From NCBI GenBank assembly GCA_964493205.1, contig CAZBMJ010000001.1, positions 73,611 through 137,610 of the forward strand: DNA of 64,000 nt. Reading direction: 5' to 3'. The DNA comes from an uncultured Myxococcales bacterium (GTDB lineage: Bacteria > Myxococcota > UBA727 > JABDBI01). The notes beneath the pieces were generated by a model that was given only the letters and a program-made list of their open reading frames with translations, searched no databases and was not told where the DNA came from. Positions 1-20,917 of this stretch are shown one piece after another. Within the stretch, counting starts at the first letter, position 1. Each line of letters starts with the position of its first letter. Both the position numbers and the translations under genes were made by a program.

Positions 1-1091
1 TTAAGCAAATCACAGAAAATCCTTTTATTAATGAAGCGTTAATAACTCCAGCACGATTATTATATAAAAATAAGCTTTTAAAATCAGAAAAAATTGAAAA
101 TGGTAGTGTCTTACTAAAGCTAGAGTCAGAAGGGGCTGAAGATAAAATTCTTGATGAAACTAAGATGAAAGAGCTTTTTGGTGATTTTAAAAGAGAGGAA
201 AATCTTTTGGGCAAAGGGGGAATGGGTAGTGTTTATAAAGTGAATTATAAAGGCCAAGATTACGCTTTAAAAATAGGTACTTACGAATATGAAGAATTAG
301 AAGTATTGCAATCTACTGGTGCTGTAGCTAAAGTTTTTGGAACTTTTAGTTATGACAATAAGCCTTGTATGCTGATGGAAATTGGGCAAAAAAGTTTAGC
401 AGATATGAATAAAAATGGTGAAAAACTTACTAACGACCAGCTCACTACTGCTATTGCTAGTTTTACGAAGCTTATTGGCGAAGAAAAAAAAATTGGCATA
501 GAAAATAAGGATATTAAACCTGATAATCTTTTACTCACTAACGATAATAAGCTAGTGGTGATTGACATTTCTTCATCAGCTGAAACTACTGGCTATACTG
601 GTACTGAAGGGAAAAAATTTGCCATTTCTTTACTTGAAAATAAAAAAGGAATTTCTTTAGCTAGTGCTAATAAATTTATAACTACAGAAAGTCTATTAAA
701 TCCTGACCAAAAAACAAAAGGAGTATATTTTGTTGCTCCTTATGTTATTGCTCATTGGAGCAAAAAAGTATGTGTTGAAATACTTCTTTCCAAAGTCAAC
801 TGTGATGCTATAAAAACTCCTAAAGATTTTTTTGACCTTATTCCACCAGAAAAACGTGAAGAGCTAGCTCAACAAAAAAATGAAGAAATTAAACAAGAAA
901 ATGAGAAAAATATACATCATAAATTTAAAAAGAAAACTCTTGATAGTAATAATTATAATGATGTTATGGGTGTTTTAGCCGAAAAATACCCTCAGTATAC
1001 TGTTGAATATTTAGTTGATGATATTTTTAATAATGAATTAGATAAAAATGATGAAGTTAATAAAGGTTTAATTGAACTTTATAATTTGTAA
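1..1091 (+). CDS. Eukaryotic-like Ser/Thr protein kinase domain protein, 5' partial (reading frame is open to the window edge); paralog of 2179..4212
   Basis: Reading frame open from nt 3 onward. GKGGMGSVYKV glycine loop, YALKI (AxK), DIKPDNLLL catalytic-loop-like and VIDIS (DFG-like) motifs. N-terminal region aligns with the kinase 2 segment ENPFVGKDFITSARPS. Last 27 aa identical to kinase 2. Confidence 0.6.
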   Translation, partial: KQITENPFINEALITPARLLYKNKLLKSEKIENGSVLLKLESEGAEDKILDETKMKELFGDFKREENLLGKGGMGSVYKVNYKGQDYALKIGTYEYEELEVLQSTGAVAKVFGTFSYDNKPCMLMEIGQKSLADMNKNGEKLTNDQLTTAIASFTKLIGEEKKIGIENKDIKPDNLLLTNDNKLVVIDISSSAETTGYTGTEGKKFAISLLENKKGISLASANKFITTESLLNPDQKTKGVYFVAPYVIAHWSKKVCVEILLSKVNCDAIKTPKDFFDLIPPEKREELAQQKNEEIKQENEKNIHHKFKKKTLDSNNYNDVMGVLAEKYPQYTVEYLVDDIFNNELDKNDEVNKGLIELYNL

Positions 1092-1106
1092 ATTTACCTG
1101 CAGTGA

Positions 1107-1137
1107 CTAGCATGGTGCTAGCCAGTGATTTTTGTTG
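1107..1137 (+). terminator. Weak hairpin (ctagca-tgg-tgctag) followed by a T-rich stretch downstream of kinase 1
   Basis: 6-bp perfect inverted repeat with a 3-nt loop, then gatttttgttg. Weak for an intrinsic terminator. Confidence 0.25.
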
Positions 1138-1174
1138 CTATTATTAGTATATTATATTGATATGAATTTAAATA

Positions 1175-1417
1175 ATGCAGGAAAATAAGTTAATGCCAAC
1201 GATTAGTGCATTTTATGGAATACTGATTCAAATGTTTTGGGGTGATCATGCTCCACCTCACCTTCATGCGCTATACGCGGAATATGAGGTGCTGATCGAT
1301 ATCCACACTCTTGAAGTTATTCGTGGCTCTATGCCTCGTCGAGCATTAGCTTTAGTGTTGGAGTGGGCTTTTCAGTATCGTGCTGAGTTACTTGAGGATT
1401 GGAAATTATGCGAATAA
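1175..1417 (+). CDS. DUF4160-family small protein
   Basis: Sequence FYGILIQMFWGDHAPPHLHA...EVIRGSMPRRALALVLEWA is typical of the DUF4160 family. Locally higher GC than the flanks. Overlaps its DUF2442 partner. Confidence 0.6.
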   Translation: MQENKLMPTISAFYGILIQMFWGDHAPPHLHALYAEYEVLIDIHTLEVIRGSMPRRALALVLEWAFQYRAELLEDWKLCE

Positions 1418-1722
1418 AATCAATCGCCAAAGAAAATATCACCCCTAGAATAGTGTGTAACGCTCCTTGGCGGTTAATTAAAGTAAAACCACTACCAAAT
1501 TATGAACTTGAAGTTGAGTTTAATGATGGTACACATGGTTTTGTTGAAATGATTAAATTAATAATGAGTGATCATGCAGGAGTTTTTGCTGCGCTTAAAA
1601 ATAAAGATATATTTAATATGGTCCATCTTGAATATGGTGTATTAACTTGGCCAGGGGAAATTGATTTAGCGCCAGATGTTATGCACGATGTTGTTAAAGA
1701 AAAAGGACGCTGGGTTTTGTGA
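1399..1722 (+). CDS. DUF2442-family small protein, partner of DUF4160
   Basis: The DUF4160/DUF2442 pair is a conserved two-gene module. 19-nt overlap with the upstream gene. GC-richer than surrounding DNA. Confidence 0.55.
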   Translation: MEIMRIKSIAKENITPRIVCNAPWRLIKVKPLPNYELEVEFNDGTHGFVEMIKLIMSDHAGVFAALKNKDIFNMVHLEYGVLTWPGEIDLAPDVMHDVVKEKGRWVL

Positions 1723-1806
1723 ATAATCGTTTTTTTATCATCTGATAGCTTTACGAAAATTAATTTTGGGCCTCTTTTGTACCGGCCCAAATTATCTAAA
1801 ATCCTT

Positions 1807-1902
1807 TTTACATACTCAGTAAATATTCAACTAAAGTTCTAATGGCAAAGCCTGTGCCACCATACAAGCCCCTGTAAGAGTCGCAATATCAATAATTACA
1901 TC
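1807..1902 (-). pseudogene. Remnant of the pepA 3' end (duplicate of 4428..4480 plus 4777..4820, with a ~298-bp internal deletion)
   Basis: Near-identical nucleotide match to the 3' end of pepA at 4428..5948. The deletion is flanked by a gccacca direct repeat in the intact copy. Its length is not a multiple of 3. Confidence 0.7.
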
Positions 1903-2178
1903 AACTTAGAGACTTATGATAATAATGATTTAGATATAAATAGCTGTAGTTAACTTAAAGTAAGGCGGTTTGCTGTTGCTAACTATTATTTATCTGCTTA
2001 ATTAGCAATGCTTAGGTATGTAAGATTTTTGATCTACTTTATATGCTTAATTTAGCTATGAGCAACAGTTAAAAAGGCTAACCAATCGTTAAATAAAGTA
2101 AATTTATAACCATTTAACCTATTGGCTTATTTTTTTTTAATCTATTGATATGTGTTTTAAAAATGTTAAATAAATAGT

Positions 2179-4212
2179 ATGAAAAATATTTTTAAAATTT
2201 ATTTTATTATTGTGTTGTTATTTTTTATATCTTCTTGTGTTGATGTTGGAAAATCTGTGGAAAGAAAGCAATCTGGCGCCACAGGAAGTACAGATTCTTC
2301 TGGCTCAAATAACGATGAAACACTAAAAAAATGTAGCGAGCGTTCTAAGACTGAACTTAACTGTAGTTCAGATGGTAAATGCGAACTTTATCAAAATAAC
2401 TGTGTAGATGCTTGTCATACTATAAAAGAACCGACTGCTTGTGATGCACAAAAGCCAAGATGCCAATATTATAATGGAACTTGTTTACAATATTTTAAAG
2501 CTAAAGAACAAGAAGACGCTAAAAAAGAGGCAGAAGAGAAAGCTAAAAAAGAAGCAGAAAAGAAAGCTAAAGAAGAAGCTAACAAAATAGAGATATTAGG
2601 TGAGAATAAATATTTCAAAGTTAGTAAACAAGCTGGAAAAACTAGTTATGAAATAAAAGAAGCCGTTACCAAACCTACATTTATAAAAAAAGATGGGACG
2701 TTAGTGGAAAGTTCTAGTCTAGAGACTATTTCTTATGATGATTTTTCTAAGCTATCTCATATTGCTTTGCCTGAATCACATCCATTTACTAAACAGTTTT
2801 TAGAGAATCCCTTTGTCGGTAAAGATTTTATTACTTCAGCTAGGCCGTCTATGTGGGGCAAACTTTTAGTAGCACAAAAAACTGAGAAAAACACAGTGGT
2901 GTTTAGCATTGATAAAGATGTTTCAAAGCCAGATAAAAAAGTTATTGATGAAGCTAAGCTAACAGAACTTTTTGATGATTTTAAAAAACCAGAAAATCTT
3001 TTGGGCAAAGGTGGGGAGGGCAGTGTTTATAGAGTTAAGTACAATGGCGAAGATTATGCCTTAAAAATAAATGCAGCAGAGTACGAAGATTTAGAAAAAT
3101 TGCAGTCCACTGGGGCAGTGGCCAAAGTTTTTGGGACTTTTACATATGGCAATCAGCCTTGTATGCTCATGGAAGTTGGACAAAAAACTCTAGAAGATAT
3201 GAACAAACGTGGCGAAAAACTTAGTGAAGAGCAACTAAAAACTGCTATTACAAGTTTTAAAAACCTTGTTGCAGTGCAGAAAAAACTTGGGATTAGAAAT
3301 AACGATGTTAAACCAAACAATTTTTTGCTTACTAAAGATAATAAACTTGTAGTTATTGATATAAGTTCGATGCGCACTCGAGGATATGAAAGTTCAGATA
3401 CACAGCTTTTAGCTAGATCATTATTAGAAAATAAATTAGAAATGTCACTTAGAGGTGGTTATAGCGATTTGCAAGGCGTTCCTTTTCATGATCTAGAATA
3501 TATTAATCCAGAAATAATATCTCCAGACCTTTTGGTTAAGTGGAATAAAAAAGTTTGCAGTGAATTTTTACCTAAAGAGGATAAATGTAAAGATATCAAA
3601 AATTTTGCTGAATTTTTTAAACTTATTCCAACAGAGAAACTTTATGAAATTGCTTTGAAAATTAACCAAAAGTGGAATGATGTTTCAGGTACTGTTGATC
3701 AAGATAAGAATCTTATGGCGGGGGGGGGCAAATATCGTACTGGATTACCTATGCCTTTAGTGCAAGAACTAGATAATAACGTTTGGCAACAATACTTTGA
3801 TAAAAAAGACAATGTAATAAGTGGATTTTGTCGTTCTATTATTGCCAATTCTCAATATACTGAAGAAGAAGAAAAAGAAGGCCTTACAGGGGAAAAGGCT
3901 TTTTATAAACCATTTAAAGATAAATATAAGAAAGATTGTCTAGAAGATGGGACTGAAACTAACATCCATCTTCCAGGTAGAAAAGTTACAAAATATAAGT
4001 TAACTAAAAATTTTACTTCATCAGCAGATGAGGAATTTATACAATTTATTAAGGATGCTTATTCCTATCATATTTATCAACAAACCATGGCAAAATTAAT
4101 TGAAGATTATTCTAAATATACTGTTAAATATTTAATTAGTGATATTTTTAATAATGAATTAGATAAAAATGATGAAGTTAATAAAGGTTTAATTGAACTT
4201 TATAATTTGTAA
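2179..4212 (+). CDS. Eukaryotic-like Ser/Thr protein kinase lipoprotein (signal peptide plus lipobox FFISSC, Cys-rich N-terminal module, KEAEEKAKKEAEKKAK coiled-coil-like repeat, kinase domain, long C-terminal region)
   Basis: GKGGEGSVYRV, YALKI, NDVKPNNFLL and VIDISS motifs. Paralog of the 1..1091 gene with an identical C-terminus. Contains a G9 homopolymer at 3720..3728. Confidence 0.6.
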   Translation: MKNIFKIYFIIVLLFFISSCVDVGKSVERKQSGATGSTDSSGSNNDETLKKCSERSKTELNCSSDGKCELYQNNCVDACHTIKEPTACDAQKPRCQYYNGTCLQYFKAKEQEDAKKEAEEKAKKEAEKKAKEEANKIEILGENKYFKVSKQAGKTSYEIKEAVTKPTFIKKDGTLVESSSLETISYDDFSKLSHIALPESHPFTKQFLENPFVGKDFITSARPSMWGKLLVAQKTEKNTVVFSIDKDVSKPDKKVIDEAKLTELFDDFKKPENLLGKGGEGSVYRVKYNGEDYALKINAAEYEDLEKLQSTGAVAKVFGTFTYGNQPCMLMEVGQKTLEDMNKRGEKLSEEQLKTAITSFKNLVAVQKKLGIRNNDVKPNNFLLTKDNKLVVIDISSMRTRGYESSDTQLLARSLLENKLEMSLRGGYSDLQGVPFHDLEYINPEIISPDLLVKWNKKVCSEFLPKEDKCKDIKNFAEFFKLIPTEKLYEIALKINQKWNDVSGTVDQDKNLMAGGGKYRTGLPMPLVQELDNNVWQQYFDKKDNVISGFCRSIIANSQYTEEEEKEGLTGEKAFYKPFKDKYKKDCLEDGTETNIHLPGRKVTKYKLTKNFTSSADEEFIQFIKDAYSYHIYQQTMAKLIEDYSKYTVKYLISDIFNNELDKNDEVNKGLIELYNL

Positions 4213-4427
4213 ATTTATAAAAAAGAGTGACAACTATCTTGCAAAACACCAGGAGCATAGCAACGAGGCAGTCCATCTTCATAATGCCTAGATTGCCACA
4301 TCTTTCGCTATGCTCAAGATTCGCAAAGACGCTTATGTGAAGAGCTCTTCTTTAGAAGGGCTCTCTGGGCGACGTGGAACTCTTGGGTTGACTCCTATGG
4401 AGCACACCATAGCAAACATATTTAGCT

Positions 4428-5948
4428 TTACATACTCAGTAAATATTCAACTAAAGTTCTAATGGCAAAGCCTGTGCCACCAGTACCCAAGTATGGATGT
4501 GCTTTAGAATTGGTTGCTGGGCCTGCAATGTCTAAATGAGCCCATTTGGTATCGTTGGTTATAAATTGTTGTAAAAATAATGCTGCAGTGATGCTTCCGC
4601 CCCATCTATCTCCACAATTTTTAAAGTCAGCATTGGGAGTTTTTAAGCCTTCAAGCAGATCTTGGTTTAGAGGCAGTCGCCAAAATTGCTCTCCAGTTTT
4701 TTTATCTAGGCTTAATAAACTATTAGCGAGTTCATCGTCGTTACTAAAAAGGCCTGCACATTTGGTACCTAGCGCCACCATACATGCGCCTGTAAGAGTC
4801 GCAATATCAATAATTACATCGGGTTTATCATTGTCTATAGCATAGGTGATAGCATCAGCTAATATTAAACGACCTTCGGCGTCTGTATTGCTTATTTCAA
4901 TGCTTAAGCCATTTCTAGCGATAAAAATATCTCCTGGATGATAAGCTTTTGCATCAACGCCATTTTCTACACAAACCATGTAGCCAATAATATTAAAGTT
5001 AAGATTAAGGCTGGCTATAGTTTTCATCACACCTAGCACAGCTGCAGAGCCTGACATATCAACTTTCATATCAAGCATGCCATCAGCTGGTTTTATATCG
5101 AGGCCGCCTGAATCAAAAGTTACACCTTTGCCAATTAAAACTACAGTTTTTTTACTAGCTTTTTTAGGTTTATAAATAAGCTTTATAAGTCGGGGTGGCG
5201 CGAATTCTGATGCAGCACTGGCTACAGCAAGCATCAAGTTCATTTTTTCTTTTTGCAAAGCTTTTTCATCGAGTATTTCTATGCTTAAGCCAGTTTCTTT
5301 TGCAACTTTTTGTGCTTCTTTGGCTAATTGCACAGGATTAGCAAATATGGGAGGCTCGTTGATTAAATCTCTTGCCAAAATAACGCTACTAGCAATATTT
5401 TGTCCTGAAATTAAGGCTTTTTTTAACGCATCGGTGGGAGTTTCATGAATTATGAGATCTACTGTTTCAACATGGATAGTATGTTTATCCATATCTTTCG
5501 AATGATATTTTTTAAAAGTATATGAGGCTAAAATAATACCTTCAGTTATGGCTTGAATGGCATCAAATAAAGGAACTTCAGTATTTTTTGGTAGTAGTAT
5601 TTGTAAGCTTTTAATTTGTTTTTTGTTGGCTAGTTTATATGCATGGGCACCAGCTTGCCTAAAATGATCCACTGATTGTTTATAAGCATCTCCTAAACCA
5701 ATCAGTGCGATGCTCGTATTTGTTTCTTCATTAAAAATATTGCTTACAAATGTTTGATTAAGATCCGCGAGAAAACTTTCACGTTTAGCATGCTCAAATA
5801 AGTTTGAAGAGCACCATTTGTTTATGGTTTCTGCATTATCGTATATATCAAATTCATGTTTTTTGCTTTTTAAAGCTTTTTTATTGACTAAAACCACGCT
5901 TAAATCAGTTTTTTTTAAGGTTTTTGGGTTATTAAGACTAAATTTCAT
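4428..5948 (-). CDS. pepA: Leucyl aminopeptidase (M17 family)
   Basis: NTDAEGRL M17 signature, and VGKGVTFDSGGLDIKP metal-site motif. Length 506 aa. Confidence 0.9.
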   Translation of the reverse strand: MKFSLNNPKTLKKTDLSVVLVNKKALKSKKHEFDIYDNAETINKWCSSNLFEHAKRESFLADLNQTFVSNIFNEETNTSIALIGLGDAYKQSVDHFRQAGAHAYKLANKKQIKSLQILLPKNTEVPLFDAIQAITEGIILASYTFKKYHSKDMDKHTIHVETVDLIIHETPTDALKKALISGQNIASSVILARDLINEPPIFANPVQLAKEAQKVAKETGLSIEILDEKALQKEKMNLMLAVASAASEFAPPRLIKLIYKPKKASKKTVVLIGKGVTFDSGGLDIKPADGMLDMKVDMSGSAAVLGVMKTIASLNLNFNIIGYMVCVENGVDAKAYHPGDIFIARNGLSIEISNTDAEGRLILADAITYAIDNDKPDVIIDIATLTGACMVALGTKCAGLFSNDDELANSLLSLDKKTGEQFWRLPLNQDLLEGLKTPNADFKNCGDRWGGSITAALFLQQFITNDTKWAHLDIAGPATNSKAHPYLGTGGTGFAIRTLVEYLLSM

Positions 5949-8258: not shown

Positions 8259-9194
8259 ATGCAAGATCAAAAAATATTTCATAAAGATTTAACCCTTACA
8301 AATTCTTTATTTTTTATGGATAATTTGGCATTAAGAGTTAAGAAAATTTTACTTTCTAGACTATTAGATTCTGAAATAGAATTAAAAAACCAAATAGAAT
8401 TTATGTTTAACAAAAAAATTGGCAATAGAAGTTTGTTATTGCATTCAGATATATTTTTTTGGATTAAAAGCCAAGAAAAAACTCCTCTAGAAAATATCTT
8501 AAAAAGTGTTTTAGATAGCTTTAAAACTATGCAAAATAACAAAAATAATTTTGGTTTTTTTATAAGCATTAATTATTTAAATAAAATTTTTACGAGTAAT
8601 CGTCTAGCACGAGCTCAAAGAGCAGCTTCTGAGGCAGGAACTGGAGAAATTTCTTTTAGTATTGTTGATGCTGATCTAGATTTATTCAATGAATCAATAA
8701 GGCTTTTATGTGATTATTATCCTTCTATTATGCAAGAGACAGAAAATTTTGTAAGCAATATTTGTTTTTTTGAAGGTAAGACTATTATAGGCTTTACTGA
8801 TTTTCAAAATCATGGCTCTATTTTTATGAAGTATCGATTAGTAAAAGATAATCCAATACGCCTAGCTGAAGAAATTGTTCATGAAGCAGGACATACAGTG
8901 CTTAATACTATTATGGTCAAAGATAGATTGATTTTAAATACTAAAGACGAGCGCTATAGTAGCCCGTTAAGGCAAGACTTAAGGCCGATGTTTGGCTTAT
9001 TTCATCAGTTATATGTTTTATCTAGGCTTAAAAAATTTTATATGGCCATCAGTAAAGCCCATAGCTCAGTAGCACAAAAGCAGTTACAAAAAATATGTGC
9101 GCAGCAAGATTTAGCTTTTGATATTGTTTCAAAAAATGCAAAATTTACCCCATTTGGTAAACAATTTTTTAATGAGCTTGAGTGTAATGCATGA
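8259..9194 (+). CDS. HExxH-motif protein (putative metal-dependent peptide-modifying enzyme or peptidase)
   Basis: IVHEAGHTVLNT HExxH motif. 4-nt ATGA overlap with the downstream E1-like gene indicates translational coupling. Confidence 0.4.
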   Translation: MQDQKIFHKDLTLTNSLFFMDNLALRVKKILLSRLLDSEIELKNQIEFMFNKKIGNRSLLLHSDIFFWIKSQEKTPLENILKSVLDSFKTMQNNKNNFGFFISINYLNKIFTSNRLARAQRAASEAGTGEISFSIVDADLDLFNESIRLLCDYYPSIMQETENFVSNICFFEGKTIIGFTDFQNHGSIFMKYRLVKDNPIRLAEEIVHEAGHTVLNTIMVKDRLILNTKDERYSSPLRQDLRPMFGLFHQLYVLSRLKKFYMAISKAHSSVAQKQLQKICAQQDLAFDIVSKNAKFTPFGKQFFNELECNA

Positions 9195-10219
9195 GCTTAT
9201 TAGTCTTAGCACCAAAAGTACAAATAGTGCCTCTTGATGAAAACAAAATAATATTATTTAAAAAGCATGCAAAATCTGCAAAACTAAGTATCGAACCATA
9301 TAAACATGAAATTTTTGCTAATCTTTTAGTAAGTGGTTTTAAAAAAGAAGATCTAAGTTTTTTACTGGAAAAGCCTCAAAATATTATTGATAATTTAATT
9401 CAAAAATTGCTTGAACATAAAATTTTATCTTTTAAGTCAGAAAACCATGTTTTGGCAAAATATAGAAGGCTAGAAGCTTATTTAGAAAATTCTCAATTAG
9501 AAAGCTTACAAAACAGTTCTGTTTTATTATTAGGAGTAGGCGGTCTTGGTAGTTATATTTTTGAACATTTAGTTGCCAATGGAATTAAAAATATTACTGT
9601 TCTTGATGATGATAGCGTTGAAGAAAGTAATTTATCCAGACAGACTTTGTATTCTGATGAAGATGTAGGAAACCTCAAAGTTGAGGCGGCAGCTGTATAT
9701 GCTCATAAGCATGGTATAAATATCCGCGCTTTAGCATGCAGAATTAACACTACTGATGATATACTAAAGATTATTAAAGATAATAAATTTGATTTGATCA
9801 TATCCACCATAGATGAGCCCATATGGCAAGTTACGAGATATGTTATTAACGCTGCAAAAGCAACAAATATACCAGTATTACGAGCTAATAGTAGGGCTGT
9901 GGGGCCATTTTATTTTCCTCATAAATCAGCGTGTCCTTTGTGTAAATCTTTTTATAAGGCGAAAAATATACCAAATGCTAAAAGTATTATGGAGCGTTAT
10001 AATAATGGTTTTCCAGCTCGTAAAACCTGCGCTATTAGCTATGAACTTGCCTATGTTAGTTTAATCGTCATAAAAGAGGCTATTAATTTTTTAGCCAATG
10101 TGGGTCAACTTGCCAGTTTCAATAAAGAGCTTACCTGGAATGCACAAGAACTAAGTGTTGCATCTCACAAAGTTATTGCTTGTAGTAATTGCATCGCTTG
10201 CGGTGATGTTTATGAGTGA
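9191..10219 (+). CDS. E1/ThiF/MoeB-like adenylyltransferase-family protein with a ~100-aa N-terminal extension and C-terminal CxxC...CxxCxxC cysteines (MccB/PaaA-like architecture)
   Basis: Rossmann motif LLLGVGGLGS, ThiF signature DDDSVEESNLSRQ, and C-terminal CPLCK...CSNCIACG. Confidence 0.6.
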   Translation: MSLLVLAPKVQIVPLDENKIILFKKHAKSAKLSIEPYKHEIFANLLVSGFKKEDLSFLLEKPQNIIDNLIQKLLEHKILSFKSENHVLAKYRRLEAYLENSQLESLQNSSVLLLGVGGLGSYIFEHLVANGIKNITVLDDDSVEESNLSRQTLYSDEDVGNLKVEAAAVYAHKHGINIRALACRINTTDDILKIIKDNKFDLIISTIDEPIWQVTRYVINAAKATNIPVLRANSRAVGPFYFPHKSACPLCKSFYKAKNIPNAKSIMERYNNGFPARKTCAISYELAYVSLIVIKEAINFLANVGQLASFNKELTWNAQELSVASHKVIACSNCIACGDVYE

Positions 10220-11354
10220 GATGTTTGGAGGCATAGGCACTGATAATGTTATTACTAAAAAATTTTTTCATGAAGAGTCAAGTTTTTATATTGCATACTT
10301 AGCAGCTAAATCACCTAAATTTTTAGGCAATTATAACATACCTGCAGGATATTTAGTGGGTAATGGTTTTTCTTTTAACGAAGAAGAAGCTAAAATAAAG
10401 GCTTTAGGCGAATTTATTGAGAGGTATTGTGCAGAAGTAAGTGTTCATGAAAAAGAAATTTATCGTTATTCTATAAAAGAGCTCGTTAAAAAATCTTTGG
10501 CTTTTGTTCACCCTAATACTCTTAGACCATACAAAAATTGTTCAAAATATCCAGAAATTCAAGATGATGAAGTTATCTCCTATGTTAAAGGTTATGAAGC
10601 ACTTGATAAAAAAGAAATTCTAATACCTGCCTTAGCTGCATTTTTGCCTTTTAAGCCTATTAATTTAGAAACAACTTTTTTTAGCCCCAGTGCTACTGGT
10701 TTGTCAGCTTATACTAATCAAGAACAAGCAGAATTATCAGCTTTATTAGAGGTTCAGGAAAGAAGCGATTTAATGGCCAGTTGGCGAATTAAAAACCTTA
10801 AAATTCAAAAATTGCTTACAAACGATTTGCCTGACCATATTACAAAATTTTTATATTATAATAATTTTAAGTTAAGGCTATTTGTAATTAATCAGACTGT
10901 TTTAGCTATGCTGTGTCATATAAACGATACTGGGTTAACTATTGGCTCTAAATCAGGAGTCATTAATATTATTACGATACTTGCTGCTATTAATGAAGCA
11001 ATTGCTTTGCAAATTACCATGCTAAATAAACGTGTGAGATTTAACGCTATCCCTAAAAATAGTTTAGAACATGTTATGTATGCTTATTTTAACTCTGAAA
11101 TATTTATAGAATTTTATGAGAAAAAAGTTGATGCACAACTAAGTTTTATTTCTGAAAATCAAATAAATAAAAATATATTTTTTGTGGATTTAAGTACTAA
11201 AAAAGCTAAAGAATCAGGTTGGTATTGCGCTAGATGCATAAATATAGAAGCTTTTAGCAAAGAAAATAATGCATATTATCCGCACTTAAAAAACTTTTTT
11301 GAACACGGATTCACTGAGGCTGAGTTAAACTTATTGCCGCATCCTTTTGGTTAA
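10206..11354 (+). CDS. YcaO-domain protein (ATP-dependent peptide backbone-modifying enzyme family)
   Basis: GNGFSFNEEEAKIKALGEFIERY matches the YcaO A-x-GE-x-IERY signature. C-terminus ends in LPHPFG (PxPxP-like). Start chosen at ATG 10206, overlapping the E1-like stop. The ORF track starts it at 10155. Confidence 0.55.
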   Translation: MFMSEMFGGIGTDNVITKKFFHEESSFYIAYLAAKSPKFLGNYNIPAGYLVGNGFSFNEEEAKIKALGEFIERYCAEVSVHEKEIYRYSIKELVKKSLAFVHPNTLRPYKNCSKYPEIQDDEVISYVKGYEALDKKEILIPALAAFLPFKPINLETTFFSPSATGLSAYTNQEQAELSALLEVQERSDLMASWRIKNLKIQKLLTNDLPDHITKFLYYNNFKLRLFVINQTVLAMLCHINDTGLTIGSKSGVINIITILAAINEAIALQITMLNKRVRFNAIPKNSLEHVMYAYFNSEIFIEFYEKKVDAQLSFISENQINKNIFFVDLSTKKAKESGWYCARCINIEAFSKENNAYYPHLKNFFEHGFTEAELNLLPHPFG

Positions 11355-11357
11355 AGA

Positions 11358-12539
11358 ATGAAAAAATCATTGATTATTTTAGGTGTTTCACAAACTATAT
11401 CTTCTATTAGTGTAACTATACTTATATTTGCCCTTATGATGAGCTCTTATGGTAATTCCAAAAGTATTTTAGATCTTGCTTGGGTTTATATAGCCACATC
11501 TTTGCCAGTTTTTTTAGTAGCACCTTTTTGTGGATTATTAATAGATAAGCTTAATAAAAAGCTTAATTTAGTAATAGCCGATAGTATTTGTATTTTATCA
11601 GTACTCTTTCTTTATTTTAATAACTATTTTATTTTCTTGGTAGTTTTTTTTGTACAATTAAGCATAAGTTATCAGGGCTTAACCAATCAAACTTTGGTGT
11701 CGCTATTTTTTAATAAAGATAAACTTCATATGATACTTGGGTGGATGCAATTTAAAAAAGCTTTGCAGCGTTTAGTAGCGCCAGCTTTAGGTGGATATTT
11801 ATATAATATGTTGGAATTAAAATATATTATAGCTGTTAGCATTATTAGTTTAATAATAGCTTTAATTAGTTTAATTTTTGTGAATATACCTAGTGTTAAT
11901 ATTGGAAAATTATCTAACAGCAATTTTATTAATAATGCCGGATTAAAATATATATTGAGCGATAAAAATTTATTTAATATATGCATTTTTTTTATATTTC
12001 TTAATTTTTTATCTGGTATTTATTCTGTTGTTTATACTCCCATATTATTAGCTTTTAGCGATGAACAAGCTTTGGGTTATGCATTAAGTATTGGCAGTTT
12101 GGGAATGATTTTTGCAAGTTTAACGAGCGCTCATATAAAAAGCCTTACACAAAAAAAATATCAAGCTCTTTTGCTATATGTTTTTATGAATGGCTTAAGT
12201 GAAATATTTATGGCTTCATACCCAAATTTTTGGGTCTATTCTGTGGGTTTGTTATTTGGTTGTATTACTTCTTCTTATATAGCTGTTTGTAATAATATTA
12301 TATGGCAGTCTAGTGTGCCGTTCTCTATTCAAGGTGCTACTTTTGGGGCAAGAGATTTTTTTGCTCTTGGTGCATTACCATTGGGTATGCTGATTGGTGG
12401 AATTTTTGGTGATTTTATTAAATCCAACTATGAGCTTTCTCATATATTAATCTTAACGGGAATTTTGCAGTTAATTTTAGTAGCTTTTTATAGCTATGCG
12501 TGGAGGTTTGAGCATGAAGGGGTATATAGTAATAGATAA
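11358..12539 (+). CDS. MFS-family transporter, putative exporter of the modified peptide
   Basis: About 12 predicted TM helices. Starts 4 nt after the YcaO stop. MFS exporters are typical of microcin C and pantocin-type clusters. Confidence 0.55.
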   Translation: MKKSLIILGVSQTISSISVTILIFALMMSSYGNSKSILDLAWVYIATSLPVFLVAPFCGLLIDKLNKKLNLVIADSICILSVLFLYFNNYFIFLVVFFVQLSISYQGLTNQTLVSLFFNKDKLHMILGWMQFKKALQRLVAPALGGYLYNMLELKYIIAVSIISLIIALISLIFVNIPSVNIGKLSNSNFINNAGLKYILSDKNLFNICIFFIFLNFLSGIYSVVYTPILLAFSDEQALGYALSIGSLGMIFASLTSAHIKSLTQKKYQALLLYVFMNGLSEIFMASYPNFWVYSVGLLFGCITSSYIAVCNNIIWQSSVPFSIQGATFGARDFFALGALPLGMLIGGIFGDFIKSNYELSHILILTGILQLILVAFYSYAWRFEHEGVYSNR

Positions 12540-16771: not shown

Positions 16772-19700
16772 ATGAACAAAATATTTTTATATTGTTTAGT
16801 GTTTATTACTGCTAATTATTTATCAGCTATGAAATTTAATCCAATTAATAAAGATTGCTATATTGAAAGAAATTATGAGGTATTAAATAACTATAATAAT
16901 TTTAGTGTTTATATTAAATCTAAAATTGTTGATGTTATTGATAATTTTTATGAAAAATATGTGAAAAAAGATCTTCATAATGAAAGATATATGACTAGGT
17001 TGTTATTATTTTTAGTAAATATGGCACATGAATATAATATTGTAGATGATATTTTAGAAAATATTGAAAAAAATAATGAACAAGAAATTATAATTTACGC
17101 AAAAGAAATATACTTAAAATTTAGTAAAAATAATAATGAATTAATTCAAAATGCTTACACGGCTTTTGACGATAAAATATCAATAGAAGAATTAAATAAA
17201 TTAAGTCTTAATAATTCATATGGCATTGATGTTGTATATAAAAATAATAACATGATTAATCACCATTTAGTGGATATGATATTTTTTAAAATTATTAAAA
17301 ATAATTGTGATTTAGAAATAACTAGCCCTTCTTTAGGAATAACACTTCCAGCATCTATATGGTTTAAGTTGATTATTCTTGATCAGCAAGTAAAGATTTT
17401 ACTTTATAAAGAAAAATTTATATATAAACCATATTTTCCTTCAGTTGTTATAGAAACTTTATTTGATGATAATAATCATAGTAATTGTAGTAATATCGAG
17501 AAAATTAATAAATTATTAAGTGGTTTATTTTTATTTAATAAAAGTGATTTTGATATTATAAAAAATGCATTTAAGTTTATAAAAAATATAGAAGATTTTA
17601 AAAATTTTAATAAAAAAGATCATTTTTTTCTTTTTAGATATATTGCTTATAAATACGATGATAAAAAAAAATATACAATGTTAAATTATTTTACAGAAAA
17701 TATTATATCTAAGAATTATGTTGATTTTTATAATGATAATTTTGGATTTTCTTCATTAGTAAATGAACTCAATCTTAATGTAAATGATTATAGTGCTGAA
17801 AAGATTGAAAATATTAAAAATAATATAATCAACCAACATAAAAAACGTATGTATGAAATTTTATCTAAAAAATATTTTTACAATAAAGAAGTGAGTGATA
17901 ATATTGCTCGAATAGAATATGATAATTTTCTGTTTGAAAGTGAAATTGTTAATAATTATAATAAAATAATTATTGATTTTAATAAAAAAAATAAAGATAT
18001 ATTAACTGTTGATAAAATTTTAAAAATTAAAAGCAATTTCAATGAATCTTTTAAGAAAAAAATTTTTGATATAACTGAAATATTAAAAAATAATTTAAAT
18101 AATAAACAAATTGGCATTTATAATAAATTTAATAATATTTATTTTGATTATAATGAATTTAAAAACATTGAGATTTTTGATTATAATTATGAGATGACAG
18201 ATTTTTATAAAAAAATTAGAAATAGATTGTTTGCTAATGAAATTGTTAAATTGATAATTATTAAATCGATTAAATTTAATTTTATAAACGATAATTCAAC
18301 GGAACAAGATGTTATTAATTTAATTAAAGAAAGGACTAATTTTTTATTAAATAGTAATAGTAAAAACATGTTCGATAATGAAATTATTTATTTAAATAAT
18401 ATTGTAGATATTAAATATAAGTCAAAATCTAAAAATTTAATAGGTATTGATGTATTTATTTTTAATGAATTTTTAAGAGAGTTTTATTTGAAAATATTTT
18501 ATATATCTCCTGAAAATAAATATAATTTTTCTACAAAAAGCAATAAATTAGATATTGAATTACGATTTGATGAATGGCTCTTATTATTTGAAACTTTATC
18601 AAAAAAAGCAATTTTTAATGAGTTAGCAGTGCAAAATATTTTTGATAAAATAGTTGAGAAATTTAAAGATATTAAAGCTTATATAAAATACAACAATGAG
18701 AATCCATTTTTTGATAATTATTTAGCGGGTAAAAACAATCAATCTCTTAGAAAAAAACTGTTTGTTTATTATTTATATAATGAAAATAAAGAACTTATTG
18801 ATAATATTAAAAATGAAAATAATGAAGAAATTATAAGAAATAAATTTAATAATTTTTTAAGCAAAATTAATTACGCTAATAAGATTTTAATCAATAATAA
18901 AGAACAAGAAGAGCTAAAAGAACAAGATAAAGCGATTATCGATGAATATTTAGAAGAATTATTAGGTAAAACTTCTCATATAAGTTTTGCGTCAAATAAA
19001 AAAAATAATAAAAAAACGCAAGCTAAGAAAAAAACAAAAGTAAAACCAGATAAAAAAACAGAAAATAAAAAAGAACTAGAACCAGAGGCAACTAAAAATA
19101 ATAAAGACAAGCAAAAAACAACTAAAACTAATAAAAACAACAAAAACCCACAAAACCAAACTGGTGGTTTTATTGCAGATATACCTCTTCATAATAATAC
19201 AAAAAAAACAAAGAAAGCTTTGACGAAAGGGAAAATATTAGTCCAAGAAGCAGAGGCAGAAAATAAAAAAGAAGTAGAGCCGAATGCAACTAAAAGTAAT
19301 AAAAACAAGAAAAACCAACAAGAACAAACTGGTGGTTCTGTTGCTGAAAGTCCAGGTGTAGGGCTTCGTGAAGTTTTTGAAGCAACGCCTAGTCCTCCTG
19401 AGAATTCAAAAGTTTTTTTACCAAAAGCCTCTAATAAAGTTTTGCCGAAAAGGGAAATATTAGTCCGAGAAGCAGAGGTAGAACCAGAAGCAGAACCATC
19501 TACAGATTTATCTAAATACAAATATTTATCAAAAAAAGTTATTGTACCACAAATAAATAGCCAGTTTGGAGCTTTGCAGTATAAACTTGATAAAAAATAT
19601 GAAGATAAGCAAGAAAAAGTAGGGAAAAATGATGTAGTTTCTCTGCCTAACAGTAATGAGAAACCAGTAGCTATTAAACAAAAAACTGAATTGAGTCCTG

Positions 19701-20917
19701 TTCAAAATATTGAAAAAGAAGAATCAATAGTTTCAGAAGAAAAAAAAGAAATGTCAAAAAGAAAAATAAGAAAAGCAGAAATCAAAAGAATGAAAATTAA
19801 AGAAGATAGGGCTGAAAGAAAAAAAATTGCTATAAATGCTATAAATAATCAAAAATCTTTAAAAGCTAGTAAGGACAATTGGGAAAAAGAACAGCAAAAT
19901 AGAGAATTAGCATCAAAGAATAATTATGAAAAACTCTTATTAGAGTTAGAAAACAGAAATAGGGTTATAGAAAAAGCACTGTTAAAAAATGATTTTAAAG
20001 TAGTAGCGCTTAAAAAGAAATTAGAAGACGAATTGGAACGCAATAAAGTATCAATAAATCAAATACGCAAAAAAATAAACGATAAAACATTAAACTTAAA
20101 AGAGGCAGAAAAAAGTGTATCTATTTATTCAATTGAAAATTATGAAAAACCAGTAGTTATTCAACAAAAAACTGAATTAAGTCCTGTTCAAAATATTGAA
20201 AAAGAAAAGCCAAAGGCTGTACAAAAAAGAAAGGAAAATAATAATAAAGTAAGAAATTTTTTCGATACTACTAAAAATATTGCTAAAGATGCTATTTCTG
20301 CAGCTTCTGCAACTAAAAAAGTTGTTTTAGGGGATTTTGCATATGTGGCCAATTTTTTAAGTCAAAGACAAATAAATAGAATACAAACAGAAAATAAAAA
20401 ATTTATTGATAATTTTTCTAAAGATAAGGAAAAATACACTGAAATGATAAAAGAAATTTCAAAAAATTATTGCAATAATATTTTTGCTTTAGATGAGTTT
20501 ATAAATATATTGATTAATGAAAAACATAATGAAGATATTAATTATTTTAATATTAAATTATCAGAGGTTGATCTATATATTAAGAATATTTCTTTAAATC
20601 AGAATAATAAAAATGTTAATAATCTTGTTGAGCAAATATGTAATAATTTTAAATATTTAAATGAACATGAGGCAAATTTTATACAATTGATTTATTCATC
20701 ATCACATTATCAAAATTTGGTATATTCATTTATGCAAGTAGATGGTAATATTAGTGAACAAGATTTTAGTAAGTTATTGTTATGGGGTACTGCACATATA
20801 AAACAAAAAACTTTACTAAGTGATCGAGTTCTTGCTTATAAAAATAAAAGAAACATGTATTATGGCTATATAATTTCTTCTTATGAAAGATTAAGAGAAA
20901 TTTTAAAGCAAGAATAG
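16772..20917 (+). CDS. Giant (1381 aa) low-complexity Asn/Lys/Ile-rich secreted protein with internal tandem repeats
   Basis: 4.1-kb ORF in 30% GC DNA cannot plausibly arise by chance. Signal peptide MNKIFLYCLVFITANYLSA. Repeats at 19061..19482 and at 19658..19721 / 20144..20209. Confidence 0.6.
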   Translation: MNKIFLYCLVFITANYLSAMKFNPINKDCYIERNYEVLNNYNNFSVYIKSKIVDVIDNFYEKYVKKDLHNERYMTRLLLFLVNMAHEYNIVDDILENIEKNNEQEIIIYAKEIYLKFSKNNNELIQNAYTAFDDKISIEELNKLSLNNSYGIDVVYKNNNMINHHLVDMIFFKIIKNNCDLEITSPSLGITLPASIWFKLIILDQQVKILLYKEKFIYKPYFPSVVIETLFDDNNHSNCSNIEKINKLLSGLFLFNKSDFDIIKNAFKFIKNIEDFKNFNKKDHFFLFRYIAYKYDDKKKYTMLNYFTENIISKNYVDFYNDNFGFSSLVNELNLNVNDYSAEKIENIKNNIINQHKKRMYEILSKKYFYNKEVSDNIARIEYDNFLFESEIVNNYNKIIIDFNKKNKDILTVDKILKIKSNFNESFKKKIFDITEILKNNLNNKQIGIYNKFNNIYFDYNEFKNIEIFDYNYEMTDFYKKIRNRLFANEIVKLIIIKSIKFNFINDNSTEQDVINLIKERTNFLLNSNSKNMFDNEIIYLNNIVDIKYKSKSKNLIGIDVFIFNEFLREFYLKIFYISPENKYNFSTKSNKLDIELRFDEWLLLFETLSKKAIFNELAVQNIFDKIVEKFKDIKAYIKYNNENPFFDNYLAGKNNQSLRKKLFVYYLYNENKELIDNIKNENNEEIIRNKFNNFLSKINYANKILINNKEQEELKEQDKAIIDEYLEELLGKTSHISFASNKKNNKKTQAKKKTKVKPDKKTENKKELEPEATKNNKDKQKTTKTNKNNKNPQNQTGGFIADIPLHNNTKKTKKALTKGKILVQEAEAENKKEVEPNATKSNKNKKNQQEQTGGSVAESPGVGLREVFEATPSPPENSKVFLPKASNKVLPKREILVREAEVEPEAEPSTDLSKYKYLSKKVIVPQINSQFGALQYKLDKKYEDKQEKVGKNDVVSLPNSNEKPVAIKQKTELSPVQNIEKEESIVSEEKKEMSKRKIRKAEIKRMKIKEDRAERKKIAINAINNQKSLKASKDNWEKEQQNRELASKNNYEKLLLELENRNRVIEKALLKNDFKVVALKKKLEDELERNKVSINQIRKKINDKTLNLKEAEKSVSIYSIENYEKPVVIQQKTELSPVQNIEKEKPKAVQKRKENNNKVRNFFDTTKNIAKDAISAASATKKVVLGDFAYVANFLSQRQINRIQTENKKFIDNFSKDKEKYTEMIKEISKNYCNNIFALDEFINILINEKHNEDINYFNIKLSEVDLYIKNISLNQNNKNVNNLVEQICNNFKYLNEHEANFIQLIYSSSHYQNLVYSFMQVDGNISEQDFSKLLLWGTAHIKQKTLLSDRVLAYKNKRNMYYGYIISSYERLREILKQE

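Follow-up and report, generated by a model that had tools for sequence, protein, structure and literature searches.

How do neighboring genes come to share nearly identical borders around bodies that have drifted far apart? The question is raised by the first 6 kb of a stretch of 64,000 nucleotides (nt) from an uncultured Myxococcales bacterium (contig CAZBMJ010000001.1, positions 73,611 to 137,610; here, the window), where two genes for eukaryotic-like kinases, K1 and K2, lie on the same strand beside pepA, and a piece of pepA lies between them. Did this locus arise in a single event and owe its later state only to decay and divergence of the upstream copy, as a preliminary description proposed, or have the parts of the repeated unit had different histories? 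In the reading we favor, to which we assign a probability of about 0.6, an old, lineage-specific tandem duplication beside pepA would have been followed later by homogenization of the unit borders; K1 and K2 would be sisters, with K1 the faster to change, and the pepA scar at the joint would have eroded.

The duplicated unit and its joint

K1 enters the window as the 3′ 363 codons of a kinase paralog (3 to 1091, plus strand; open reading frame [ORF], Pfam, and BLASTP evidence) in a frame that is open to the window start, and K2 (2179 to 4212, plus strand) is an intact gene for a lipoprotein-type Hanks kinase of 677 amino acids (aa). Their products are 44% identical over 373 aa (BLASTP, E=4e-92), with a separate match of 63% over the C-terminal 56 aa, and the DNA blocks 144-565 and 2937-3359 are 78% identical. 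The 3′ tails (996 to 1096 and 4117 to 4217) agree at 97 of 101 positions and include an exact run of 78 nt (1019-1096 and 4140-4217), with homology that ends 5 nt past both stop codons. The boundary is sharp: just upstream of position 1019 identity is only about 55-60%, and then the exact run begins.

The third element is pepA itself, an intact gene for an M17 leucyl aminopeptidase on the minus strand (4428 to 5948), whose product matches the Pfam Peptidase_M17 catalytic and N-terminal domains (E=2e-118 and 6e-15) and scores 478.9 bits against NF002083, above the NCBIfam cut-off of 468. This gene is the donor of a two-part remnant of 96 nt (1807-1902), also on the minus strand. Part 1 (1807 to 1862) is identical to pepA 4427-4482 at 56 of 56 positions and encodes the last 17 PepA residues and the stop codon; part 2 (1856 to 1902) matches pepA 4774-4820 at 45 of 47, so that the whole remnant agrees at 101 of 103 positions, far beyond chance (BLAST E=1e-18 and 5e-13 in a small local search). 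The motif GCCACCA has exactly two sites in pepA, at 4476 and 4774, and occurs once in the remnant, at the joint of its two parts (1856-1862). The stretch that the remnant lacks is 298 nt long, one repeat copy included. A microhomology-mediated deletion is supported as the probable cause of this loss, given a repeat at both ends in pepA and a single copy kept. At 1902/1903 the remnant abuts the AT-rich upstream (promoter) region of K2 (1903 to 2178, plus strand, 276 nt), the first base of which is the duplication joint.

In total, these observations bear out much of the preliminary description, which had named the kinase paralogs, their near-identical 3′ ends, the recurrence of the pepA 3′ end with an internal deletion of about 298 nt, the 7-bp gccacca repeat bounding that deletion, and a tandem duplication with the remnant at its joint. 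Each element was recovered within 1-4 nt of where it had been placed (the offset between the tails, for example, is 3121 rather than 3120), and the order of the elements recurs on an independent contig.

All sequences considered here are short-read metagenome assemblies, and four ENA metagenome contigs, L031 to L034, bear on the locus. L034, from another sample and a k=141 assembly, is 85-95% identical to the window and belongs to a related strain. Read in the orientation of the window, its 1.1 kb carry a kinase tail, spacer segments 4218-4250 and 4311-4344, pepA 4843-5124, the first bases of the upstream region (AACTTAGAG), and the 5′ end of a K2-like gene, complete with the Cys-rich insert that is found in K2; this unit has the spacer and not the toxin-antitoxin (TA) cassette described below. 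At the level of sequence, L034 provides independent confirmation of a kinase tail and a pepA fragment ahead of K2, and the layout appears not to be an artefact of one assembly. Because the fragment in L034 reaches pepA 5123/5124, the joint of 4820 to 1903 in the window would not be the original breakpoint on the pepA side, and the fragment would originally have reached at least 5123/5124. On the upstream-region side the joint lies at the same base in both strains; on the pepA side it differs (4820 versus 5123/5124).

L034 also speaks to the spacer of 209 nt (4218 to 4426, 45% G+C) that separates the convergent K2 and pepA. Since pieces of it lie behind the upstream kinase in L034, the spacer is best regarded as the intergenic sequence that the unit had ancestrally. 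Its folding is more stable than that of shuffled sequences (z=-3.2 on the plus strand and -2.3 on the minus strand), and it could hold terminator hairpins or a novel small RNA. Neither the spacer nor the TA region matched an Rfam family, whether gathering scores or E<=1 served as the threshold, and we did not adopt the spacer as an RNA gene, since part of it (4251-4310) is deleted in L034.

Is there a further unit upstream of K1? L031, from the same strain as the window and at 2.7x coverage, supplies the 138 codons of K1 that lie outside the window, for a full length of 500 aa. In L031, K1 is preceded by an upstream region and a copy of remnant part 2 that together match window 1862-2298 at 427 of 437 positions, with an exact run of 247 nt. 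The upstream regions of K1 and K2 differ at 3 of 276 nt, and the L031 remnant copy carries the same two substitutions that separate the window remnant from pepA. A further remnant copy upstream of K1 is thus probable, as judged from this one contig. Over its first 11 nt the L031 copy disagrees with the window, an indication that there is a second left flank and hence a third pepA-derived joint, if not more.

Several patterns around the joints were considered as traces of a mechanism. TTACA has only four sites in pepA (4428, 4814, 5120, and 5744); those at 4428, 4814, and, in L034, 5120 sit at edges of pepA-derived fragments, and those at 4814 and 5120 lie 0-2 nt from the two strain-specific fragment ends. 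A plain deletion between TTACA direct repeats was rejected for the window joint, since its product would be 3 nt shorter than what is observed; such a deletion would fit if the ancestral joint were TTACA/TCAACTTAGAG and L034 had lost 3 nt. Likewise rejected was a "TTAC target" of the IS200/IS605 kind, as the flanks of the kinase unit are not contiguous pepA and the TTAC offset differs between strains. Finally, a likeness of 41 nt between 1920-1960 and the kinase tail (83%), which had suggested a third decayed kinase end, was set aside. We ascribe it to chance in AT-rich DNA because its score was reached in 95 of 1000 shuffles and in 10 of 210 control windows.

Ages of the borders and the kinase bodies

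To date the parts of the unit, full-length K1 was rebuilt with L031 and codon aligned to K2. Overall synonymous divergence (dS) is 0.79 and nonsynonymous divergence (dN) is 0.29, and most 30-codon windows of the kinase body have a dS between 0.9 and saturation. The first 30 codons have a dS of 0.19, and the last 26 codons show zero differences. The conserved leader (2179-2298, plus strand, in K2) matches that of K1 at 113 of 120 nt; that is, the first 40 codons are about 94% identical, and the tail, the pepA remnant, and the 276-nt upstream region are 96-100% identical. Among these, the parts under neutral or nearly neutral conditions (the remnant, the upstream region, and the last 78 nt) stand at about 98-100%. 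The parts of the unit therefore differ greatly in age: had a pseudogene fragment been evolving for as long as the kinase bodies, about half of it would have diverged. A single event with uniform decay, as the preliminary description would imply, does not fit here: it would have to accommodate borders at about 98-100% identity and bodies with a dS from about 0.8 to saturation. Its notion that the upstream copy decayed and diverged holds in part, given that K1 evolves faster than K2 and lacks about 130 residues conserved in the family, but K1 is not decayed, and its ORF and catalytic residues are intact.

The related strain allows a three-way comparison, in which one of the window-strain copies comes from the low-coverage contig L031. 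At 24 sites in the upstream region and leader, the two window-strain copies share a state not found in L034, and 6+2 sites are mosaic; for the tail the corresponding counts are 5 sites and 5+3 mosaic sites. Such likeness of borders within a strain reads as the signature of concerted evolution, or of a renewed duplication that postdates the divergence of the strains. Even so, both strains already possess the joint, with a K1-like tail before it and a K2-like gene after it.

Where did the two bodies come from? In the kinase family, K1 and K2 are sisters, with neighbor-joining bootstrap support of 0.91 (263 columns) and 0.98 (kinase core). With the homologue P0004 as the outgroup, K1 has 70 unique changes and K2 has 31 (p=1e-4), and K1 is without about 130 residues that are present in all other family members. 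Full-length relatives are rare: a profile search of 1.84 billion representatives returned only about 41 clusters at E<1e-30, and beyond these the matches were generic kinase N-lobes only. The homologues P0002, P0004, and P0006 are single copy and lie at unrelated loci on other low-G+C contigs (one follows rplL, one adjoins the atp operon, and one adjoins an aminotransferase gene). Because K1 and K2 are sisters and homologues elsewhere are single copy, the duplication appears to be lineage specific and old relative to the borders. The sister relation also argues against replacement of a body from a distant foreign source, thin sampling notwithstanding.

The single-copy state expected of relatives is thus found, at loci unrelated to this one: the comparison covered the homologues at other loci and pepA loci at 57-58% protein identity, none from the same genus. 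These nearest PepA proteins come from metagenome-assembled genomes of Myxococcota in which the divergent aromatic-amino-acid transporter gene is kept. No kinase was seen at these pepA loci, of which only that on L003 extends beyond the pepA 3′ end (L004 ends inside pepA). A protein search with K2 minus its low-complexity N terminus returned no further paralog or strain fragments, and two scans of JGI metagenome contigs with conserved patterns of 32 and 35 nt (upstream region and tail) gave no match.

A proposed history and its rivals

Based on the observations above, we propose that illegitimate (nonhomologous) recombination or a replication slip duplicated in tandem a unit comprising about 276 nt before the kinase start, the kinase, the spacer, and pepA to about 5123/5124 (about 700 nt of its 3′ part), and that this event would have left a truncated pepA pseudogene at the joint. 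The kinase bodies would then have diverged long and asymmetrically, K1 faster and with the loss of about 130 residues, and K2 with its Cys-rich insert. Much later, once this strain and that of L034 had separated, units would have exchanged sequence with one another, and the remnant with intact pepA, by gene conversion or unequal crossing-over, which would have kept or made the borders (the last ~100 nt, remnant, upstream region, and leader) nearly identical; the same exchange probably generated or maintained the further unit or joint upstream of K1. In this model, the pepA scar eroded by strain-specific deletions, which in the window strain would have removed the 298 nt between the GCCACCA repeats plus 4821-5123, and in L034 would have removed 4345-4842 and 4251-4310. 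One copy of the spacer would have been replaced by a DhiTA-like cassette of higher G+C content (36-42%). The duplication of the unit and the deletions in the scar are read from the sequence; we infer the divergence of the paralogs, the homogenization of the borders, and the replacement by the cassette, together with the order in which these took place and the assignment of the homogenization to gene conversion.

Several points weigh against this history. L031, the sole source of the K1 5′ end and of the upstream copy, has 2.7x coverage and an unrelated far end. Two contigs of its assembly, ENA ERZ22158298, in fact have ends unrelated to the window (L031 1114-1412 and L033 2880-2979). L033 confirms pepA and its upstream neighbors and ends in foreign GC-rich sequence, so contigs of this assembly can be chimeric. 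Nearly identical repeats may also collapse in short-read assembly, so identities of 100% may be overstated. No part of pepA is shared by the remnants of the two strains, so the common ancestral fragment of 4427-5124 is a reconstruction, and the second deletion in the window strain must end within 1-2 nt of the original joint, which is an uncomfortable coincidence. Gene conversion is not separable here from a second, recent duplication with recombination between units. Finally, L032, from the window strain and the same assembly as L031, places the TA segment after K2 (over L032 1-1229, K2 body 3672-4217 is joined to 1097-1779), whereas the window has it after K1. The TA segment is flanked by two exact repeats, one of 78 nt and one of 56 nt, at which a swap of paths could have occurred in either assembly; either the window or L032 carries such a swap, or the population is polymorphic at this segment. 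Contigs thus disagree on whether the cassette follows K1 or K2, and the existence of the array is unaffected.

Could one duplication suffice, with decay and divergence of the upstream copy and no later exchange? Direct-orientation paralogs, a pepA remnant at their joint, and K1 as the faster copy are all what it predicts. At a dS of at least about 0.8, however, roughly 50% identity would be expected at neutral sites, against the 98-100% seen; zero synonymous change in the last 26 codons would have a probability of about 4e-5 (estimated from an overall proportion of synonymous differences, pS, of 0.49), and the copies within the genome are closer to each other than to the orthologous module of the other strain. 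We consider this history very unlikely. Could there instead be only one kinase-pepA unit, or kinases at different loci, with repeats mis-threaded in the de Bruijn graph? The window does begin inside K1, and the protein collection holds no K1 protein from the NCBI record, unlike K2, PepA, and the DUF4160 protein, which suggests a contig end inside the repeat region; the conflict of L032 with the window across the exact 78-nt repeat and the chimeric contig ends in the ENA assembly point the same way. An artefact is nevertheless hardly credible when the joints GCCACCA/TACAAG and ATC/AACTTAGAG have 7 nt or no homology and could not be created by shared k-mers, when L034 (other sample, k=141) holds the kinase tail, pepA fragment, and K2-like 5′ end on one contig, and when the K1 and K2 bodies, only 72-78% identical, are two distinct genes.

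Two further histories were weighed. If the duplication were recent and one kinase body had then been replaced by a diverged homologue, foreign or a distant paralog, by way of the leader and tail, the youth of the borders and the sharp shifts of identity near codon 40 and at 1018/1019 would follow, and the kinase gene, found at unrelated loci elsewhere, does move between locations. Set against this are the sister relation of K1 and K2 to the exclusion of any outside homologue, with the caveat of thin sampling (about 41 clusters), and the K1-like tail before a K2-like gene in the related strain, by which both types would predate the young borders; we regard such a replacement as unlikely. Alternatively, does each strain duplicate the unit anew, with a fixed left breakpoint at the start of the upstream region and right breakpoints at TTACA sites in pepA? 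The upstream-region side of the joint is base identical in both strains and only the pepA side differs (4820 versus 5123/5124), two of the four TTACA sites lie 0-2 nt from the two ends, and borders are closer within a genome than between strains. But a K1-like tail and a K2-like gene flank the joint in both strains, so the array would predate their split; the offset from TTACA to the joint differs by 2-3 nt between strains, and position 1903 shows neither a recombinase gene nor a structured site. Recurrent duplication is, in our estimate, quite improbable. An old duplication with later homogenization of its borders is the history that we retain.

Does the array do anything for its host? We can speculate that it is a recombination-driven diversification locus, in which the promoter-leader and tail modules and the pepA-derived joints serve as homology arms for the exchange, duplication, or replacement of kinase bodies. 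If so, it would provide a small, fast-changing repertoire of surface-anchored extracytoplasmic kinases in a low-G+C, possibly host- or prey-associated bacterium; we think this a long shot.

The cassette, the kinases, and known systems

The segment unique to unit 1 (1097 to 1806, plus strand) stands in the place of the spacer and contains a DhiTA-like gene pair. One gene encodes a DUF4160, putative DhiT-like toxin of 80 aa (1175 to 1417, plus strand; Pfam E=1.3e-19), and the other encodes a DUF2442, putative DhiA-like antitoxin of 104 aa (1408 to 1722, plus strand; Pfam E=1.3e-9) when read from the ATG at 1408; the mechanical ORF begins instead at the TTG at 1399. The segment has 36% G+C and the DUF4160 gene has 42%, against 31% for the window (30.8%). 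Against the NCBIfam equivalog model of DhiT, the DUF4160 protein scores 77.6 bits, below the cut-off of 100; it would be a relative of DhiT and not its equivalog. When compared by local BLAST, the TA segment (1097-1806) showed no similarity to the spacer (4218-4426), and the cassette would therefore represent a replacement of the spacer, not a simple insertion. The cassette, the probable remnant copy upstream of K1, and the conflict of assemblies over the cassette go beyond the preliminary description.

Are K1 and K2 kinases? Against the Pfam Pkinase model (cut-off, 31.7 bits), K1 scores 33.0 and K2 scores 31.3, just below, with positions 4-149 of 263 aligned. Throughout the family alignment, K1 included, G276/G278/G279/G281, K296, D376, K378, N381, and D394 are invariant; that is, the Gly-rich loop, the ALK lysine, D-x-K-P-x-N, and the metal-binding Asp of I-D-I are kept. 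The AlphaFold2 model of K2 has a mean predicted local distance difference test score (pLDDT) of 75.6, high across the kinase part, and its top Foldseek matches in the PDB are MEK1, PknB, CDK2, and Aurora (E about 1e-6 over ~180-200 columns). On model and motif evidence, the label "eukaryotic-like kinase" appears justified, with a core shortened relative to the Pfam model, and phosphotransfer is predicted. Members of the family are 500-700 aa long, with a β-rich N-terminal domain, a truncated Hanks core, and a helical C-terminal domain; most relatives have a lipoprotein-type signal. In K1 and K2 the signal MKNIFKIYFII.LLFFISSC ends in a lipobox (FFISSC; pattern [LVI][ASTVI][GAS]C), and homologues have LSAC, VAAC, LFAC, and similar, as judged by eye from the pattern match only. 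K2 residues ~41-113 (window 2299-2520) comprise a Cys-rich insert and, after it, a Lys/Glu-rich helix; L034 (reverse complement 830-1020) retains the insert, and K1 and all other aligned family members lack it.

It would be unusual for a kinase to be anchored outside the cytoplasm. If the extracytoplasmic location of this family is real, what is the substrate, and where does the ATP come from? In our view this rare, uncharacterized family of lipoprotein-type Hanks kinases is of more interest than the duplication. Homologues lie at L001 3558-5213, L035 10001-11683, and L037 5906-7582. In L001 (3040-5213) the gene for P0002 is directly downstream of rplL, which rpoB normally follows, and the contig ends before the next gene. 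In L035, a gene for a 1276-aa product without Pfam matches lies directly upstream of the kinase gene.

Farther along the window, genes for a ThiF-family protein (9191-10219) and a YcaO-domain protein (10155-11354) overlap, and a major facilitator superfamily transporter gene (11358-12539) comes next; together (9191-12539) these could form a small cluster for azoline- or thioamide-type peptide modification. At 16772-20917 lies an ORF of 1381 aa with no Pfam match at E<=1e-5.

How does the locus compare with known systems? Like Hanks-type kinases such as PknB of Mycobacterium tuberculosis, K1 and K2 have a Pfam match over the N-lobe and catalytic loop (close to the gathering score, with K2 just below it), the catalytic residues, and the predicted fold. 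They differ in matching only the first ~145 of 263 Pfam positions and in having no recognizable activation segment or APE motif. PknB-type proteins combine a cytoplasmic kinase with a transmembrane helix, whereas K1 and K2 have a lipoprotein-type signal and family-specific N- and C-terminal domains. The type II toxin-antitoxin system DhiTA has been demonstrated experimentally in Dickeya dadantii (PMC8198452), and the window cassette shares its domain pair, toxin-first order, and overlapping genes; it differs in its sub-equivalog score and its uncertain position in the array, and its activity is a prediction.

The locus as a whole is a new example of well-known processes, that is, of ordinary genome evolution. 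What it offers is a clean case in which the scar of a tandem duplication serves to date it, borders appear to have been homogenized later, and scars erode by short-repeat deletions. It also carries a warning: exact repeats of 78, 56, and about 247 nt were resolved inconsistently by short-read assemblers, and gene order here, above all the place of the TA cassette, is not trustworthy without spanning reads. A truncated flanking gene at a novel joint has been described for bacterial gene amplifications. As in tandem duplication by illegitimate recombination, there are two direct units, the joint fuses the right end of the unit (in pepA) to its left end (kinase upstream region), and homologues elsewhere are single copy; unlike in that process, the borders are far younger than the bodies, and the fragment at the joint is trimmed differently in each strain. 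Families of surface proteins and lipoproteins under concerted evolution provide the other comparison. The array differs from them in having only two (perhaps three) units, in encoding kinases rather than adhesins or antigens, and in showing no sign of phase or antigenic variation, of silent cassettes, or of a dedicated recombinase. What it shares with them is a near-identical promoter, leader, and tail around diverged centers, and copies within a genome that are closer to each other than orthologous modules are between strains.

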